From IMG/VR virus record IMGVR_UViG_3300035034_002798, positions 1 through 64,000 of that record: DNA of 64,000 nucleotides; one strand, written 5' to 3'. A program made the position numbers and the translations under genes. The notes below the pieces were generated by a model. The model was given only the letters and a program-made list of their open reading frames with translations. It was not told the DNA's origin and ran no database searches. Each line of letters starts with the position of its first letter. Position 1 is the first letter of the stretch. Below, in pieces: positions 943 to 62,835 of this stretch. This DNA is from a virus.

Positions 943-2052
943 TTAGCCTCCTCTAATATCTAAATGCTCAGTTCCTGGTATTGCTCCTGTTCCATAAAAC
1001 CTACATCTGTCATTGCAGTTCTCACAAGCTTCAATTTGCTTTTTGTTTATCATATCAAGTTGGTAACCAAGACATCCACCCTGGCAGGTACTACTTAATC
1101 TACCTGAACATTCTTTACATCCATCCTGGTACACATTGAAAGTGTGCCTATTTATAGTATGCTTAAAAAAATCAGCTATATCTTTTATATCCTTGAAATC
1201 TCTTAGATTAACATTAGAAAGAGAGCTGGTGGCATAACATCTTATAACTGTTAAATCATATAAGACATCCATTGCGGTACCACATGTTTGATCTTTTAAT
1301 GACTCTGGTGCTATTTTAAATACTTTTCTCATATCCTCATCAACAAAAGTACATGGGATAAATGGTACACAATCACCTGTAAGTTTTTTTATTCCGTAAT
1401 CAGAACATCTTTTTAAGAATTCTGCAGCTACGGAATTCATCTCACTGTGATGCTTTAAGCCTTCAGACCAATCGGCCGGGTTTATCTGATTACATGATGT
1501 CTTCTCAGAGGAACTATTAGGGCTTGTAATTGCCCATCTTACATGTTTAATTCTTCCTTCGGGCATTTTATCCAATAGATTAAAATAATCCGACATATCC
1601 TGTTCTGGGCTGTATAAATTCATTCCAGGAGTTATTTTTATCTTGGTTTCCCTTGCAATTTTTAAAGTATTATTTTCTATTAGTTCATAATAGTCTCCAG
1701 TAATACTTTCTTCATTGTAGTTTACTGTAAATGATATCTTTTTCTGAAGTTTTTCGGGCAATTCTAAAAACATATTTAAAACACTTTCGTCAAAAGCTCC
1801 ATTTGTGAAAAGAGTAATTCTCTCAAAGAAAGGATCGTGTGCTATTTTTTTAAACCATTCTTTAAACTTTGGATGTATGGTAGGTTCTCCTCCAATAATT
1901 CTAAAACTTCTATTATTAGATCTTTTATGGAAGTTAATCACAAAGTTGAAATCTTTTTCACTCATTCTAAGCTTGGGGCTCTTGTCTTCACCATTAGGCG
2001 CAAAACAATAAGGGCAGTCTAAATTACAGTTCTGATTTATAGCAACATTCAT
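943..2052 (-). CDS. radical SAM protein with SPASM-like C-terminal domain
   Basis: CNLDCPYC motif, GGEPTIHP, C-terminal CKEC...CQGGC plus extra CENCNDRC. Confidence 0.9.
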   Translation of the reverse strand: MNVAINQNCNLDCPYCFAPNGEDKSPKLRMSEKDFNFVINFHKRSNNRSFRIIGGEPTIHPKFKEWFKKIAHDPFFERITLFTNGAFDESVLNMFLELPEKLQKKISFTVNYNEESITGDYYELIENNTLKIARETKIKITPGMNLYSPEQDMSDYFNLLDKMPEGRIKHVRWAITSPNSSSEKTSCNQINPADWSEGLKHHSEMNSVAAEFLKRCSDYGIKKLTGDCVPFIPCTFVDEDMRKVFKIAPESLKDQTCGTAMDVLYDLTVIRCYATSSLSNVNLRDFKDIKDIADFFKHTINRHTFNVYQDGCKECSGRLSSTCQGGCLGYQLDMINKKQIEACENCNDRCRFYGTGAIPGTEHLDIRGG

Positions 2053-3210
2053 CTAAAAACACCTATATCCTTGGCCAAGGTCTTCTTCTTTTGGCGGACG
2101 AGTATTTTGATAATTACCTAGATGTTCTGTACCCGGGATAGCACCCGTTCCGTAAAATCTACATTTATTCTTACAGTTTTCGCAGGCTGTTATCTGTCTT
2201 TGGTTCAACATATCTAACTGATATCCCATACATCCACCCTGACATGTGCTGCTTAACCTTGCTGTGCACTCTTTGCAATCATCCTTATGAACAGCAAACC
2301 TGTGTCTATCAACTGTATGTTGAAAAAAGTCAACAGCATCCCCTAATGTGGTAAAGTCTCTTACGTTAACATTTGTAAGTGCTGCGGTAGAATAACATCT
2401 AGTGATTGTTAAATCATACTCTACATCTAAAGCCACCTTGCATTTTTGTCTCTCAAGTACTTCTGGTGCTACTTTAACTATCTTTCTTAAGTCATCATCT
2501 TCCATAACACATGGTAAAAAGGGAGTACAGTCTGTCACAAATTCTTTTATACCAGCCTTTTTACACTCAAGAATGAAATCTGCGGCCACAGGTAGCATGG
2601 TTTCATGATGATTCAATCCGGTCTCCCAATCAGAAGGTACTATATCCTGATCCAGTTTATTTTCATCAGGATCACCTGGACTAGTAATAGCCCATCTTGC
2701 CTTGTATATTCTACCTTTTGGAACTTTTTCTATCATATCAAAGAAATGAGAAGTATCCTGTTCTGGATCATATAAGTTGAGGCCTAGCACAACTCTTGCC
2801 TTAGTCTTTTCTGTTAGTGCGAGGATGTTTCTGTCTATAGTTTCAGCATAATTTTCAGTAACATCTTCGTTATTATAATTTATAGTAAAGATCATCTTTT
2901 TTTGAAGTTCTTCTGGCACTGAAAGGAAAACATCTAATATACCTTCATTGAATGCAGCATTAGTAAATAATACTACCTTATCAAAAAACGGATCATATAC
3001 TACCTTTTCGTAGAACTCTTTAAACTTTGGATGGATTGTTGGCTCTCCTCCAAATATTTTAAATACTCTATGGTTTGAACGTTTGAAGAATTTAATTGCA
3101 AAATCATAATCTTCTTCACTCATTCTTAATTCTGGGTCCTTAGACTCTCCGTTTGGAGCAAAACAGTACGGACAGTCTAAGTTACAGTTTTGAGTTATTG
3201 CTAAATTCAA
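2053..3210 (-). CDS. radical SAM protein with SPASM-like domain (tandem paralogue of 943-2052)
   Basis: Same CNLDCPYC, GGEPTIHP and CKEC...CQGGC motifs; colinear along whole length. Confidence 0.9.
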   Translation of the reverse strand: MNLAITQNCNLDCPYCFAPNGESKDPELRMSEEDYDFAIKFFKRSNHRVFKIFGGEPTIHPKFKEFYEKVVYDPFFDKVVLFTNAAFNEGILDVFLSVPEELQKKMIFTINYNNEDVTENYAETIDRNILALTEKTKARVVLGLNLYDPEQDTSHFFDMIEKVPKGRIYKARWAITSPGDPDENKLDQDIVPSDWETGLNHHETMLPVAADFILECKKAGIKEFVTDCTPFLPCVMEDDDLRKIVKVAPEVLERQKCKVALDVEYDLTITRCYSTAALTNVNVRDFTTLGDAVDFFQHTVDRHRFAVHKDDCKECTARLSSTCQGGCMGYQLDMLNQRQITACENCKNKCRFYGTGAIPGTEHLGNYQNTRPPKEEDLGQGYRCF

Positions 3211-50684: not shown

Positions 50685-50732
50685 TGGTTAGTATCGACTT
50701 GACAAAATGGGGGTTTTTGACGGTATTATATA
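50685..50732 (+). promoter_or_regulatory. 19-bp-spacer promoter class, copy 1
   Basis: TGGTTAG...cTTGACAaaa, 19-bp spacer, TATTATATA; same layout at 60739 and 62776. Confidence 0.6.
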
Positions 50733-58519: not shown

Positions 58520-59284
58520 TTGAAGAAAATTGCGGTTATGAATAACAAGGGAGGGGTCGGAAAATCTACCACAGCAGTAAACTGTGCCCATGGTCTAACT
58601 AAATTAGACTATAAGGTGCTAATAGTAGATATGGATGACCAAAACAATGGCAGTTCTTTTCTAGGCTTTGATGAGGATGATTATGATAAGACTATCTATG
58701 ACATGATAAAGCGGGAAGACAATCAAATACCTGCTAAGTTCGAGGAAGTGGTGGTCAGTGCAAGAGAAAACTTAGACTTACTTCCTAACTCTAAAATGAA
58801 ATATATTGAATCCTATTTTAATAATCACAGAAGATTGGACATAGCTTTAGATGAAATCTTAGGAGATTTAGAGGAGAGAGGTTATGATTTTGTAATATTC
58901 GACTGCGGACCAAAAAGATCGATGGTAAATGATGCTGTATTATTATATGTAAGCGCAATCATAATGCCGGTCCAGACTGAAGGAGCTTCAGTAGAGTCGG
59001 TTGGTAATATGTACGACTACCTAAATGATCTAAGATTAAGCAGCGATATGATCCAGGTAGTAATACCAACTATGTTTGATATTAGAACTAATGAAGCCAA
59101 AGATAAATATAAACTATTAAAAGAGATATTCGAGGACGAACAGGAGCTCTTAACTGAGCCAGTTCACAGAAGGACAAAAATAGCCGAATCAACTTCTTTA
59201 GGTAAGACTGTATTTGAATACGACGAGGAAGCGGCAAAGCAGTACTTTACCGTGCTAGAAAAGGTGGTGGAGAGAATTGTCTAA
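58520..59284 (+). CDS. parA: ParA/Soj partition ATPase (type Ib size)
   Basis: KGGVGKST, VDMDDQ.N, YDFVIFDCGP, PTMFD.RT. Confidence 0.93.
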   Translation: MKKIAVMNNKGGVGKSTTAVNCAHGLTKLDYKVLIVDMDDQNNGSSFLGFDEDDYDKTIYDMIKREDNQIPAKFEEVVVSARENLDLLPNSKMKYIESYFNNHRRLDIALDEILGDLEERGYDFVIFDCGPKRSMVNDAVLLYVSAIIMPVQTEGASVESVGNMYDYLNDLRLSSDMIQVVIPTMFDIRTNEAKDKYKLLKEIFEDEQELLTEPVHRRTKIAESTSLGKTVFEYDEEAAKQYFTVLEKVVERIV

Positions 59285-59690
59285 AAAAGATGATCAAAAT
59301 GAAGAGTTCTTTAATGGTTTGAAAGAGAAGACTAAAAAAGAGGACGAAGAAAAACAGGAAGCTAATGAAAAGCTTAAAGATAAGGTTAAAGGTAAGAAGG
59401 ATAAAGCCAAATCGGAAGATGTTGATGGTGAAAGTGATGGTGCAAGTGAAAGTGATGGCACTTCTGCAAGTGCAAGTGATGTTAAAAGTGATTCTGAAAG
59501 TGAAAGGGATGATTCTTTTATACTTAAATCTAAGGGAATTAAGGAGCAGAAGACAAAAAAGACTTATTACTTCTATCCAACTCAATTGAGGAAAGTAAGA
59601 GAGTTATCTGAGCGTTCAGGCAGAGATATGTCAGATATCATCAGAACATCTATCGACTATTTCTACGAACATGTTGAAGTAAGAGACTAA
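59277..59690 (+). CDS. ribbon-helix-helix centromere-binding protein
   Basis: Disordered N-terminus, C-terminal KTYYF...Q..KV.ELS..SG..MSDIIR..ID; overlaps parA stop. Confidence 0.75.
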   Translation: MSKKDDQNEEFFNGLKEKTKKEDEEKQEANEKLKDKVKGKKDKAKSEDVDGESDGASESDGTSASASDVKSDSESERDDSFILKSKGIKEQKTKKTYYFYPTQLRKVRELSERSGRDMSDIIRTSIDYFYEHVEVRD

Positions 59691-59988: not shown

Positions 59989-60390
59989 TTATCTTAGTAG
60001 TCTATGCTTTCTCATGTTCTGAAAACATTCTTCGCAGACATATTTTTCTTTTGCTGGTATTAAATCATAACTACCAGTCCTATCCTTTTCACAGACAACA
60101 CATTCATCTTTTTCAAACTCTATTGAAACCGAACCGTCATCATTAACAAAGGTGCTATAATTTTGACCATTACTTAGTTCGAACAATTCAATTATGGTGT
60201 CTGGTATCTCTAGGGTATTACCAATGGCCTCACTGCTAAATTCCTCATTGCAGCTCACACACATAAGAGTACTACCACATTCTCTTCTTAATACTTTAAG
60301 CGATAGGTCACCTGTTATGTTTATACATCTACTACCTGTTTCCCCTTGAAGCTCTACAGTGTTGTCCAACATAACCGCCTTAAATCCCAT
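59989..60390 (-). CDS. AbrB-like regulator with C-terminal zinc ribbon
   Basis: LEIP..I.E.FEL..G......V.D.G.V.I followed by CVVC...VCEEC; true start MGFKAV. Confidence 0.55.
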   Translation of the reverse strand: MGFKAVMLDNTVELQGETGSRCINITGDLSLKVLRRECGSTLMCVSCNEEFSSEAIGNTLEIPDTIIELFELSNGQNYSTFVNDDGSVSIEFEKDECVVCEKDRTGSYDLIPAKEKYVCEECFQNMRKHRLLR

Positions 60391-60543
60391 CTTTAAATTC
60401 AACTCCTTAATCGTTTGATATATTATTGATCTTCTCCTGTTCTTTAAATTCAACTCCTTAATCGTTTGATATATTATTGATCTTCTCCTGTTCTTTAAAT
60501 TCAACTCCTTAATCGTTTGATATATTATTGATCTTCTCCTGTT
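60391..60543. repeat. three exact tandem 51-bp repeats
   Basis: CTTTAAATTCAACTCCTTAATCGTTTGATATATTATTGATCTTCTCCTGTT x3, no spacers. Confidence 0.95.
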
Positions 60544-60738: not shown

Positions 60739-60796
60739 TGGTTAGGAATCCCAGTCTCTACTTGGCAAAACACCCTCTAAAATGCGTATTATATAT
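60739..60796 (+). promoter_or_regulatory. 19-bp-spacer promoter class, copy 2
   Basis: TGGTTAGGAA...CTTGGCAAAACACCCTCTAAAATGCGTATTATATATA. Confidence 0.6.
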
Positions 60797-60833: not shown

Positions 60834-62048
60834 ATGTTATTAGTTAAACCAGTACTAAAATGCGATTTAAACTGCGATTATTGTTACGAACACCAGGAAG
60901 GACTTTTAGAATCAGATAAGTCCAATGTAGAAACTGATATAGAACTAATGAAAGAGTCGATAGAAAAACATCATGAAAGATTTGGCAATAGAGATGGGAT
61001 CACAATCCACGGTGGTGAGCCGCTACTGCTTCCGATAGACGAGTTAGAAGAATTGATTAGATTTTCAAACGAGATTCTGGATAAAAACGATCTAGGAAAA
61101 AAAGTAGGAATCCAAACAAATGGAAATCTTATCACCGATGAGCATGTAGAATTATTTAAAAAACATGATGTTGGTGTTGGAATTTCTTTTGATGGATTCG
61201 GTGACTTGAATGATCTAAGAGGTTATCCAGATGTTGAAAGAACAAAAGAATACACTAACAGACTTGAAGATACTCTTAAAAAACTGGTAGATGCTGGTGT
61301 ACGCCCAGGTTTTATTTCCGTATTGCACCAAGGTAATGTTGGCACTGATGAAAAATTAGACAAGTTTTTAAACTTTTTAAGAAGATTAGAAGAAGAATTT
61401 GATATTACAGGTGGTAGGTTAAACCTTGCATTCATAGATGGAGATACTCCAGAAATAGAACTAAGTAGAGAGAGAGCTGCAATAGTTTATGAAAGACTAG
61501 CTGAATACGTCCTGAGTTCGCCTCGTAGAAGATATAATCCTTTTAGGGAATTTGCTGACAACTTAATGGGATACGGATTAGGCTGCTGCACTCAAACAAA
61601 GTGCGAACCTTTCAAAACACCAGCAGGCAGGGTTGTATTACCAGACGGAGACCTTTCTACGTGTGTAAAACAGGTAGATGAAGGCGGTAATCCAATTCCT
61701 TTTGATGATAATAGTTTTACTGGTAGACATGAGTTATTATTACAGAAAGACTGCCAAGGATGCCGTTTCTTCAAGGTGTGTTACGGTGGTTGTCCAGGAA
61801 GAGCAAGAGACGATGATTATATGAGAAAAGATCATTATTGTAAAGCAACTTTTAAAACTTATGCTTACATCACAGAGAGAATGCAGTCCATGTTTCCACA
61901 TATAGACCTAGTAGTAGATGAACCGATAAGAATAGAAGATGAACATAAAGATTACAGAAATAGATCCGGCAGAAACAGTAAGCACAATCCATTCAAGAGA
62001 ATGCATGCTCAAAGATCTTTATTTGACAGCAGTAAATTAAATAGATAG
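60834..62048 (+). CDS. radical SAM/SPASM peptide maturase candidate
   Basis: CDLNCDYC, HGGEPLL, IQTNG, GISFDG, CC...C, DGDLSTC, CQGCRFFKVCYGGCP...YC; start at ATG 60834 behind GGGGGAG. Confidence 0.9.
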   Translation: MLLVKPVLKCDLNCDYCYEHQEGLLESDKSNVETDIELMKESIEKHHERFGNRDGITIHGGEPLLLPIDELEELIRFSNEILDKNDLGKKVGIQTNGNLITDEHVELFKKHDVGVGISFDGFGDLNDLRGYPDVERTKEYTNRLEDTLKKLVDAGVRPGFISVLHQGNVGTDEKLDKFLNFLRRLEEEFDITGGRLNLAFIDGDTPEIELSRERAAIVYERLAEYVLSSPRRRYNPFREFADNLMGYGLGCCTQTKCEPFKTPAGRVVLPDGDLSTCVKQVDEGGNPIPFDDNSFTGRHELLLQKDCQGCRFFKVCYGGCPGRARDDDYMRKDHYCKATFKTYAYITERMQSMFPHIDLVVDEPIRIEDEHKDYRNRSGRNSKHNPFKRMHAQRSLFDSSKLNR

Positions 62049-62065
62049 AGAAAGAAGGTGCTAGG

Positions 62066-62395
62066 ATGGGAGGACATACAGACTACCCCCATGATAATTG
62101 GGGGGTAGATTCTGATAGACTAAAAGGAGAAAACGTAAAAGACGCCAGGGATATCAAAAATAATGATAGTAAGTTCAGAGGGAATGTGGTAGATAACGAC
62201 GCAAAGCAAAGCAACCATATTCCAGAAAATGACGACAAGGCAAGGTGGACACATTTCGACCACAGTGATTACACAGACACTCATCGGGATTATGGTTATG
62301 ATGTTTATACAAATACCGGTCATGATGACCACACAAATAGTGGCCACGACGATCACACAAATTCTGGGCATGATACACATACTGACAGAGGTTAG
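62066..62395 (+). CDS. His/Tyr-x-Asp/Asn repeat peptide 1 (putative rSAM substrate)
   Basis: HFD HSD YTD HRD YTN and (G)HDDHTNS x2; repeats differ at synonymous positions. Confidence 0.75.
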   Translation: MGGHTDYPHDNWGVDSDRLKGENVKDARDIKNNDSKFRGNVVDNDAKQSNHIPENDDKARWTHFDHSDYTDTHRDYGYDVYTNTGHDDHTNSGHDDHTNSGHDTHTDRG

Positions 62396-62426
62396 TAATA
62401 TCAAAAGAAGATAGAGGTGATTTAAT

Positions 62427-62744
62427 TTGGGATATGATTTATATGTAGATGATTACGCTAAATATGATAAAACAGGATCTTATGATGCTGGATCATACGG
62501 GGACGGTCATTCGGACGACTCTGGTAGTGGTTATAGTGATGATGGTGGTTATAGCGAGTCAAGTCATGATACTCACAGCGATCACGATACGCACAGCAAC
62601 TATGGTCATGATACGCATTCAAATTACGGCTATGATGATCATAATGACAATGGTAGTCACGATAACCACACAGACGGAACCTACAATCAGCATACAGATG
62701 CTCCCCACGACAATAGTCACAGCGATTCTCCAGATTTATGGTAG
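62427..62744 (+). CDS. His/Tyr-x-Asp/Asn repeat peptide 2 (putative rSAM substrate)
   Basis: HDTHSD HDTHSN HDTHSN YDDHND HDNHTD YNQHTD; GAGGTGA SD. Confidence 0.75.
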   Translation: MGYDLYVDDYAKYDKTGSYDAGSYGDGHSDDSGSGYSDDGGYSESSHDTHSDHDTHSNYGHDTHSNYGYDDHNDNGSHDNHTDGTYNQHTDAPHDNSHSDSPDLW

Positions 62745-62775: not shown

Positions 62776-62835
62776 TGGTTAGGAAAATCTTTTTCGACTT
62801 GGCAAAACACCCCCTAAAACGGGTATTATATATAT
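62776..62835 (+). promoter_or_regulatory. 19-bp-spacer promoter class, copy 3
   Basis: TGGTTAGGAA...CTTGGCAAAACACCCCCTAAAACGGGTATTATATATA. Confidence 0.6.

Follow-up and report, generated by a model that had tools for sequence, protein, structure and literature searches.

We analysed a 64,000-nucleotide stretch of viral DNA (positions 1 to 64,000 of the IMG/VR virus record IMGVR_UViG_3300035034_002798; hereafter the window) and found in it a cassette of three plus-strand genes that joins a radical S-adenosylmethionine (radical SAM)/SPASM enzyme to two short, histidine-containing repeat peptides. The enzyme gene (60834..62048, 404 amino acids) has an ATG start, a TAG stop and the Shine-Dalgarno sequence GGGGGAG. 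It is followed by pepA (62066..62395, 109 amino acids, Shine-Dalgarno sequence AGAAGGTG) and pepB (62427..62744, 105 amino acids, TTG start, Shine-Dalgarno sequence AGAGGTG); neither peptide contains cysteine, and their isoelectric points are 5.2 and 4.3, respectively. The enzyme belongs to a family that is almost exclusively viral and whose genes lie beside arrays of His-x-Asp/Asn triads (H-x-[DN]). Within this array-linked module the window unit is a rare minimal variant, with the enzyme first, two short free peptides and no DUF483-like partner, and it is this minimal, free-peptide, partner-less form that is new here. The sequences point to a phage-encoded maturation unit resembling those of peptides made by the ribosome and modified after translation (RiPPs), in which one ring-forming crosslink per triad would be the most likely reaction; we give this reading about an even chance. 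That pepA and pepB are the substrates of the enzyme is very likely, judging from their sequences and position.

Enzyme relatives in viral genomes are paired with triad arrays

We scanned IMG/VR for relatives of the enzyme. A scan with the single window protein found none, and an alignment-based scan was needed; it returned 254 contigs with an enzyme relative, with E-values to IMG/VR members of 1e-55 to 1e-33. We read 80 loci. Of 77 family loci, 70 carried, on the same strand and within 4 kb, an open reading frame (ORF) in which 10 or more H-x-[DN] triads (10-112) were counted, and in 45 loci the array ORF ended at the start of the enzyme gene. The exceptions mostly had the enzyme at a contig edge or F-x-N repeats in place of these triads. 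In the control, 78 loci around other SPASM enzymes in prokaryote genomes, no such ORF was present (maximum 7 triads). We also scanned 185,579 prokaryote species, each represented by a single genome, with a 7-sequence enzyme alignment. Only two family members were found, in a Nanohaloarchaea metagenome-assembled genome (L089) and in Chengkuizengella axinellae (L090), with arrays of 19 and 26 triads, respectively, just upstream of the enzyme. The same collection held no close relative of the window enzyme and its nearest kin, and no host could be assigned. The pairing of enzyme and triad peptide noted in the first-pass annotation, which had been made from the window sequence alone, is thus conserved, both in the two closest relatives (L004 and L005, described below) and across the family.

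We then examined the composition of the arrays. Among array His residues, 97% had D (81%) or N (16%) at +2, percentages that are partly circular because array regions were chosen by triad density, and H..D pairs were enriched 4.7-fold at the +2 spacing only. Phe paired with Asn and hardly ever with Asp, while His paired with either. Proteins encoded upstream of the enzyme in six loci (L039, L046, L047, L056, L072 and L073) mixed 9-15 F-x-N units each with H-x-D/N, and the use of Asn followed the enzyme clades. Some arrays form the ends of proteins with fibre-type domains (Gly_rich_2, Laminin_G_3). In Cumys and phiMa, two Thermus phages, the enzyme is preceded by a 343-residue protein with 54 H-x-D triads, whose gene comes after baseplate and fibre genes. 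Locus L006 encodes, in this order, a GpJ-like tail-tip protein, a 568-residue protein whose last approximately 460 residues consist of H/Y-x-D triads, the enzyme and a 282-residue protein. A third gene, homologous to Cumys_11, phiLo_141 and L006:7316-8164, was present in 67 loci; depositors have labelled the Cumys_11/phiLo_141 homologue DUF483 or methyltransferase.

The enzymes themselves also carry the motif. Two or more HxD motifs were found in the tails of 51 of 60 family enzymes, for example PHGDHTD and HGDRPHGD (L006:6001-7302, L055, L026, L001), which suggests that the motif itself is recognised by the active site. Such tails may serve for self-modification, as a pseudo-substrate or as a metal-binding tail. 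The tail of the window enzyme contains HKD-YRN, as the first-pass annotation had remarked, and both closest relatives conserve this motif in the form [HY]-x-D-Y; it is a remnant of the tail HxD feature.

These arrays could also be metal-binding in their own right, with the enzyme acting elsewhere, on DNA or on another protein. His and Asp are classic metal ligands, the PHGDHTD-type enzyme tails can equally be read as metal-binding, metal sites in fibres have a precedent in T4 gp37, where HxH motifs in the tip hold seven iron ions (PMC11705849), and DNA modification has been proposed for the Cumys module (PMC11437467). We nevertheless consider this explanation improbable: the pairing of enzyme and array is strict and specific (70/77 vs 0/78), the window cassette consists of an enzyme and two peptides with neither DNA-modification genes nor a DUF483-like partner, and the neighbours of the enzyme in fold and family modify proteins and peptides. 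Metal binding and crosslinking would in any case be compatible, as ring closure would leave the His nitrogens and Asp carboxylates free.

The window unit belongs to a separate clade of the array-linked family

About 80 metagenomic proteins matched the window enzyme at E < 1e-30. In the closest relative, L005 (76% enzyme identity), the gene order is enzyme, pepA, pepB; in L004 (60% enzyme identity) it is enzyme, a second radical SAM gene, pepA. We built a tree and used eight other SPASM enzymes as its root. The array-linked clade including the window enzyme was separated from these outgroup sequences with a support of 100 (Shimodaira-Hasegawa-like approximate likelihood ratio test), and the window enzyme, L005 and L004 formed a fully supported, long-branched clade inside the family, near its base, in a quick search whose deep branches were moderately supported.

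The canonical form of the module consists of an array protein, a radical SAM/SPASM enzyme and a DUF483-like protein, and occurs in the Thermus phages Cumys, phiMa and phiLo and on more than 250 IMG/VR contigs. It shares with the window unit the enzyme family (28-38% identity, monophyletic relative to other SPASM enzymes), the H/Y/F/W-x-D/N grammar, a similar basic/aromatic junction ahead of the first triad and the HxD motif in the enzyme tail. The layout differs. The canonical module has a single array protein of 190-1400 residues with a fibre-like N-terminal part, encoded before the enzyme, whereas the window has two free peptides of about 105 residues encoded after it. The canonical module includes the DUF483-like partner and lies inside the tail module, whereas the window unit, in which no such partner was found, lies beside partition-like genes and ahead of the packaging arm. 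The window clade is also separate from the canonical enzymes and long-branched relative to them.

Literature searches yielded no paper on this system. Only one of the papers found mentions the Thermus-phage module; there it is described as a three-gene 'rSAM module' of Cumys and phiMa and read as possible DNA modification, with no mention of histidine (PMC11437467). The first-pass statement that no viral system of this form had been described is therefore correct only in part, as a related module is in print, although its His arrays went unremarked there.

The two peptides are selected genes enriched in His-x-Asp/Asn triads

We compared the triad counts of pepA and pepB with those of shuffled sequences. 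Each peptide contains 10 H-x-[DN] triads, compared with 3.6 +/- 1.5 in 5000 shuffles (p <= 0.0002), and when all aromatic-x-[DN] triads were counted, pepA had 12 and pepB had 14, compared with 6.3 and 7.3 in shuffles (p about 0.003). These numbers agree with the first-pass description of peptides of about 105 residues with roughly ten triads each. The triad density is about 9 per 100 residues in pepA and pepB; in the 85 kb of unique genome (see below), the next-best ORF reached 2.3 per 100 residues, and no other ORF had more than 5 triads.

PepA consists of a conserved N-terminal and junction part (residues 1-62), followed by an H/Y-x-D/N array with GHD[DT]H[TS][ND]x units. The middle of the triads can be taken by many different residues (T, S, D, G, F, R, A, V), and positions 1 and 3 are fixed. 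The stretch before the first pepA triad, K-A-R-W-T-H-F-D, resembles the basic/aromatic junction before many canonical arrays, a likeness that offers a weak lead. Both peptides are very hydrophilic, and neither matched a family in Pfam, NCBIfam or PHROG scans. The ESM Atlas model of pepA was disordered (predicted local distance difference test score, pLDDT, 0.38) and gave no usable neighbours, and among 1.84 billion representatives the conserved N-terminal part of pepA matched only one other cluster.

Selection on the peptides was assessed from codon usage and from the relatives. Five of the 8 codons are not the same in two GHDDHTNS units (ggt cat gat gac ... agt vs ggc cac gac gat ... tct), so that the synonymous differences between repeat codons reported earlier are real. 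PepA is 62% identical to its L005 copy and 59% identical to its L004 copy. Between relatives, the nonsynonymous divergence (pN) was 0.23-0.29 and the synonymous divergence (pS) was saturated at 0.78-0.84, giving a pN/pS of about 0.3. Because pN is far below the saturated pS, pepA is under purifying selection, and the claim of selection on the peptide holds for it. PepB is more variable than pepA and is 48% identical to the incomplete (cut) L005 copy. The synonymous repeat codons, the pN/pS and the Shine-Dalgarno sites together indicate that the peptides are real, selected coding sequences.

Two other accounts of the peptides were rejected. The repeats as non-coding low-complexity DNA are opposed by the pN/pS and the synonymous repeat codons. 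Thioether chemistry of the sactipeptide or ranthipeptide type was discarded because pepA and pepB contain no Cys.

The enzyme has radical SAM and SPASM cluster motifs and matches no named family closely

We next examined the motifs and family of the enzyme. The cluster motif CX3CX2C lies at C10/C14/C17 and is invariant in 39 relatives, and the radical SAM model PF04055 scored 71.4 bits against a cut-off of 29.5, placing the enzyme in the radical SAM superfamily. For the SPASM region we tested the pattern CX9-15GX4C ... CX2CX5CX3C ... C, which corresponds to two auxiliary clusters. The window enzyme matches it through C252, C257-x14-G272-x4-C277, C307-x2-C310-x5-C316-x3-C320 and C336, all invariant in the same 39 relatives. 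The Pfam SPASM model PF13186 was absent among the matches of the window enzyme (E <= 1) and from the precomputed Pfam lists of family members. As CX3CX2C begins at residue 10, the enzyme has no N-terminal RiPP recognition element (RRE). The first-pass call of a radical SAM/SPASM enzyme is therefore supported.

The best NCBIfam match was DynA (NF041298), at 115.7 bits against a cut-off of 450, with residues 3-352 of the enzyme aligned to positions 4-355 of the 356-position profile. It was followed by the anaerobic sulfatase maturase (anSME), YhhB, TIGR04083, AmcB, FxsB, GrrM, PapB and XyeB, all far under their cut-offs (YhhB 90.6 of 445 bits, AmcB 76.8 of 425, FxsB 67.5 of 370, GrrM 60 of 310 and XyeB 57.2 of 450). 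The HxsB model reached 40.1 bits against 370 and matched the N-terminal core only. All 39 family members matched DynA and scored alike across the NCBIfam models. Because all curated models score far below their cut-offs, the window enzyme is outside every named family.

The AlphaFold2 model of the enzyme had a pLDDT of 89. In a Foldseek search, anSME (4K36-4K39) came out level at the top with ChlB (9GM3, 9GMC), a triceptide synthase, at template modelling scores of 0.66-0.74. In a sequence profile search of the PDB, anSME matched over the full length at 3.6e-33 and ChlB at 5e-23. A complex prediction of the enzyme with pepA scored 0.00 and, having no control runs, is not evidence either way.

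The likeness to anSME raises the question of whether Ser, or another residue, in the triads could be oxidised to an aldehyde or keto form without any crosslink. By sequence and by fold, anSME is the top solved structure and has the same three-cluster architecture, the anSME model TIGR03942 gave 93.2 bits, and several triads read H-S-D or H-S-N. However, this score lies far under the cut-off of 349.45, the middle residue varies freely where positions 1 and 3 are fixed, and pepA and pepB contain no C/S-x-P/A-x-R motif. The window family is tied to H-x-D/N arrays and has no sulfatase substrate motif; no sulfatase gene was found among the ORFs neighbouring the cassette, the rest of the genome not having been searched. 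We regard such oxidation as very unlikely. Homologues lacking triad peptides and grouping with anSME, the outcome that the first-pass annotation had set against its own proposal, were not what we found: arrays are present, and the anSME score is 93 bits against 349.

A three-residue ring is the favoured modification

We compared the unit with the triceptide synthases XyeB/XncB, GrrM/OscB, FxsB, YhhB, AmcB, HaaB, HtkB and ChlB. These are likewise SPASM enzymes of about 400 residues with no RRE, and likewise adjoin repeated aromatic-x-X3 substrates; His is used by HaaB, which acts on HAA, and by HtkB, which links His-C2 to Lys-C-beta on HTK (PMC11499958). The window shows the same arrangement, a radical SAM/SPASM enzyme without an RRE next to peptides with 12 and 14 triads. 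It differs in having Asp/Asn as X3, arrays of 10-100 motifs, a viral setting, no protease or exporter and a chemistry that is so far a proposal. Given the aromatic-x-D/N motif, the SPASM architecture without an RRE, the tie of ChlB and anSME in fold and the top matches to DynA, YhhB, AmcB, GrrM, FxsB and XyeB, the triceptide analogy drawn in the first-pass annotation is still the best available.

In the triads the aromatic residue can be exchanged for another, the middle residue is free and Asp/Asn is fixed; because this is the triceptide grammar, we favour a three-residue ring. Transcription of the unit would start from a phage promoter class found also at the head of the neighbouring packaging/structural arm, and would yield the 404-residue enzyme together with two peptides of about 105 residues that are disordered, acidic and free of Cys. 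The enzyme, which has no RRE and for which one SAM-cleaving and two auxiliary clusters are predicted, would act on each aromatic-x-Asp/Asn triad. A 5'-deoxyadenosyl radical would abstract a hydrogen from the beta-carbon of the position-3 Asp/Asn, and the substrate radical would attack the imidazole (or phenol) at position 1, a presumed attack site, closing a three-residue ring. Each triad would thereby lose 2 Da, and each peptide could carry about 10-14 rings. The result would be a stiff chain still showing His nitrogens and Asp carboxylates, a plausible metal-binding surface. The proposed chemistry draws on sequence and on analogy across the family, from which we infer that a crosslink is likely.

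Several results weigh against ring formation. The best curated score is far below its cut-off (115.7 vs 450) and the anSME model scores nearly the same (93 bits), and therefore sequence does not fix the reaction. The known His triceptide motifs end in Ala, Lys or Arg, not Asp (PMC11499958), and HXS, the nearest His-x-polar repeat analogue, carries +8 Da and not -2 Da (PMC13128918). Y-x-[DN] alone was not enriched above composition in pepA or pepB (shuffles, p 0.44-0.48); the triad repeats seen in the first-pass annotation are thus enriched in their H-x-[DN] and overall aromatic-x-[DN] forms, while their Tyr-x-Asp/Asn part stays at composition level. In addition, no DUF483-like partner was found in the window genome, L004 or L005, and a PF04467 search of the window genome, which is about 78% complete, was empty. 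Without this partner, the enzyme alone may not suffice or may do less, although at this completeness the partner gene could sit in the missing part.

Other radical SAM reactions and a second radical SAM type

The same arrays could instead be modified by another radical SAM reaction, such as a C-N or C-O link, an epimerisation or an HXS-like carbon insertion of +8 Da, perhaps with a second radical SAM enzyme helping. DynA forms a C-C link plus a His-N to Tyr-C-beta link, and DarE makes ethers. The end-to-end match to DynA is relevant here, as DynA is the maturase of dynobactin, whose core WNSNVHSYRF holds W-x-N and H-x-Y triads (PMC10125368); dynobactin differs in being a single short core peptide from Photorhabdus with no repeat array. 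In the HXS system, His-x-polar repeats gain +8 Da from two radical SAM enzymes (PMC13128918). Against such reactions, the i/i+2 grammar, with interchangeable H/F/Y/W and D/N at +2, is the signature of a three-residue ring, the HxsB model matches the N-terminal core only (40 bits vs 370), and the second radical SAM type is missing from canonical loci. Overall, another radical SAM reaction seems to us unlikely, though it ranks second after the three-residue ring.

A second radical SAM type is nonetheless present. Within the window, two tandem paralogous radical SAM genes lie on the minus strand (943..2052 and 2053..3210; 369 and 385 residues, 58.5% identical) and are possible accessory genes. 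Over the full length, they are 36% and 31% identical to L004:4917-5927 (E 6e-73 and 6e-63), which sits between the SPASM enzyme and pepA in the L004 cassette. This family is large and adjoins SPASM enzymes in RiPP-like clusters of Firmicutes; its neighbours in Dehalobacter and on a metagenomic contig are another SPASM enzyme, a U32 peptidase or FtsX permeases. Judging from these sequence relationships, it is possible that the tandem pair helps to mature pepA and pepB.

We also compared the window unit with the HXS antiphage system, in which HxsA, with His-x-Ser repeats, acts with HxsB, HxsC and HxsD (PMC13128918). Both have His-x-polar repeats matured, in our case putatively, by radical SAM chemistry and both belong to phage-host conflict; in L004, two radical SAM enzymes are present, as in HXS. 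The window unit differs in lacking HxsD, a peptidoglycan-binding domain and a signal peptide, and in being encoded by the phage and not by the host. The HXS effector is basic and periplasmic and gains +8 Da at one motif, and its repeats end in Ser, whereas the repeats of the window are acidic (isoelectric points 4.3-5.2) and end in Asp/Asn. Searches with the HXS models (TIGR03976-03979) gave no assignment to that system, with HxsB at 40.1 of 370 bits and pepA and pepB matching no NCBIfam model.

Possible functions of the modified peptides

Radical SAM post-translational crosslinking is known from bacterial peptide natural products; to our knowledge, it is not known from virus-encoded proteins. 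The array family usually sits on tail-fibre-like proteins, the parts that decide host recognition. The window holds the smallest version seen, one 404-residue enzyme and two peptides of about 105 residues with no partner and no large fibre domain, and this pair offers the simplest experimental handle on an almost purely viral candidate protein-modification system. His-x-Asp would be a possible new class of triceptide motif. A rigid His/Asp scaffold, if that is what the enzyme makes, may also account for how the fibre arrays work, for example through metal-mediated adhesion.

By analogy with the fibre-like array proteins of the wider family, a role in the virion or in adsorption is a first guess. 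The virion appendage imagined in the first-pass annotation thus suits the wider family, in which arrays sit on fibre-like proteins, but does not carry over directly to the free peptides of the window. Equally possible, again by analogy, is that the free peptides act as a released or intracellular effector, in metal binding or in an HXS-like exclusion of rival phages. A more specific reading would combine these elements: pepA and pepB would be free, ring-closed His-Asp 'poly-triceptide' peptides acting as stand-alone effectors, and the enzyme would be sufficient without a DUF483-like partner. We hold this combination to be doubtful. If true, it would be the first radical SAM RiPP of viral origin. 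The effector could be, for instance, a pre-organised His/carboxylate metal binder or a phage counterpart of the HXS gatekeeper directed against rival phages. If the enzyme alone suffices, the window would also provide a minimal catalytic pair for the whole fibre-linked family.

Promoter-like elements around the cassette

The cassette lies between two promoter-like elements on the plus strand, P1 (60739..60806) and P2 (62776..62843). P1 consists of a TGGTTAG box, cTTGGCAAAA, a 19-nt spacer and TATTATATA; P2 is of the same class and heads the next plus-strand genes toward the packaging/structural arm. The two share the pattern TGGTTAG ... cTTGGCAAAACACCC ... TATTATATA, and their 23-nt core occurs twice in the window, compared with 0 copies expected by chance, in line with the first-pass picture of a three-gene unit between near-identical promoters. 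Three copies of the class, which reads TGGTTAG, cTTG(A/G)CAAAA, an unusual 19-nt spacer and TATTATATA, occur within the 85 kb of unique genome, each of them on the plus strand: a looser one at 50685 before an intergenic stretch, one at 60739 before the cassette and one at 62776 before the packaging arm. The neighbouring ORFs were inspected, and no protease or transporter gene adjoins the cassette, as had been noted. Compared at the nucleotide level with 50,697 phage records, the cassette gave no match.

All three cassette genes end in TAG. Recoding of TAG, joining the three genes into one, was rejected, as the three genes do not share one frame and TAG serves as a normal stop, used by 22 of 89 long ORFs. 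Across the genome, ORFs of at least 120 residues end in TAA (63), TAG (22) or TGA (4).

Genome setting

The viral setting proposed for the cassette agrees with its surroundings. The minus arm of the window carries PHROG-matched replication genes, encoding a DnaE-type polymerase, helicases, a primase, a clamp-like factor and RtcB, and the source is an IMG/VR virus record, estimated to be about 78% complete. The plus arm beyond the window contains long, structural-looking ORFs. The record, 170,948 bp long, is identical to its own reverse complement and folds back around 85474/85475, so that only 85,474 bp of it are unique. The centre of symmetry cuts through a patatin-like ORF, and IMG/VR lists 'inverted terminal repeats'; the perfect fold-back most likely arose as an artefact of assembly.

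Just upstream of the cassette, at 58520-59690 on the plus strand, a ParA/CbiA-type ATPase is followed by a 137-residue protein that is very acidic and basic. The order of ParA and then cassette recurs in L004, and ParA beside the cassette hints at a plasmid-like prophage stage. The anaerobic-type radical SAM genes and the G+C content of 36.8% suggest an anaerobic, low-G+C host. On the minus strand, at 59989-60504, an ORF read from its annotated TTG start opens with an exact 17-residue tandem duplication (LNLKNRRRSIIYQTIKE twice), which may reflect repeated DNA lying upstream of the real start and not coding sequence.

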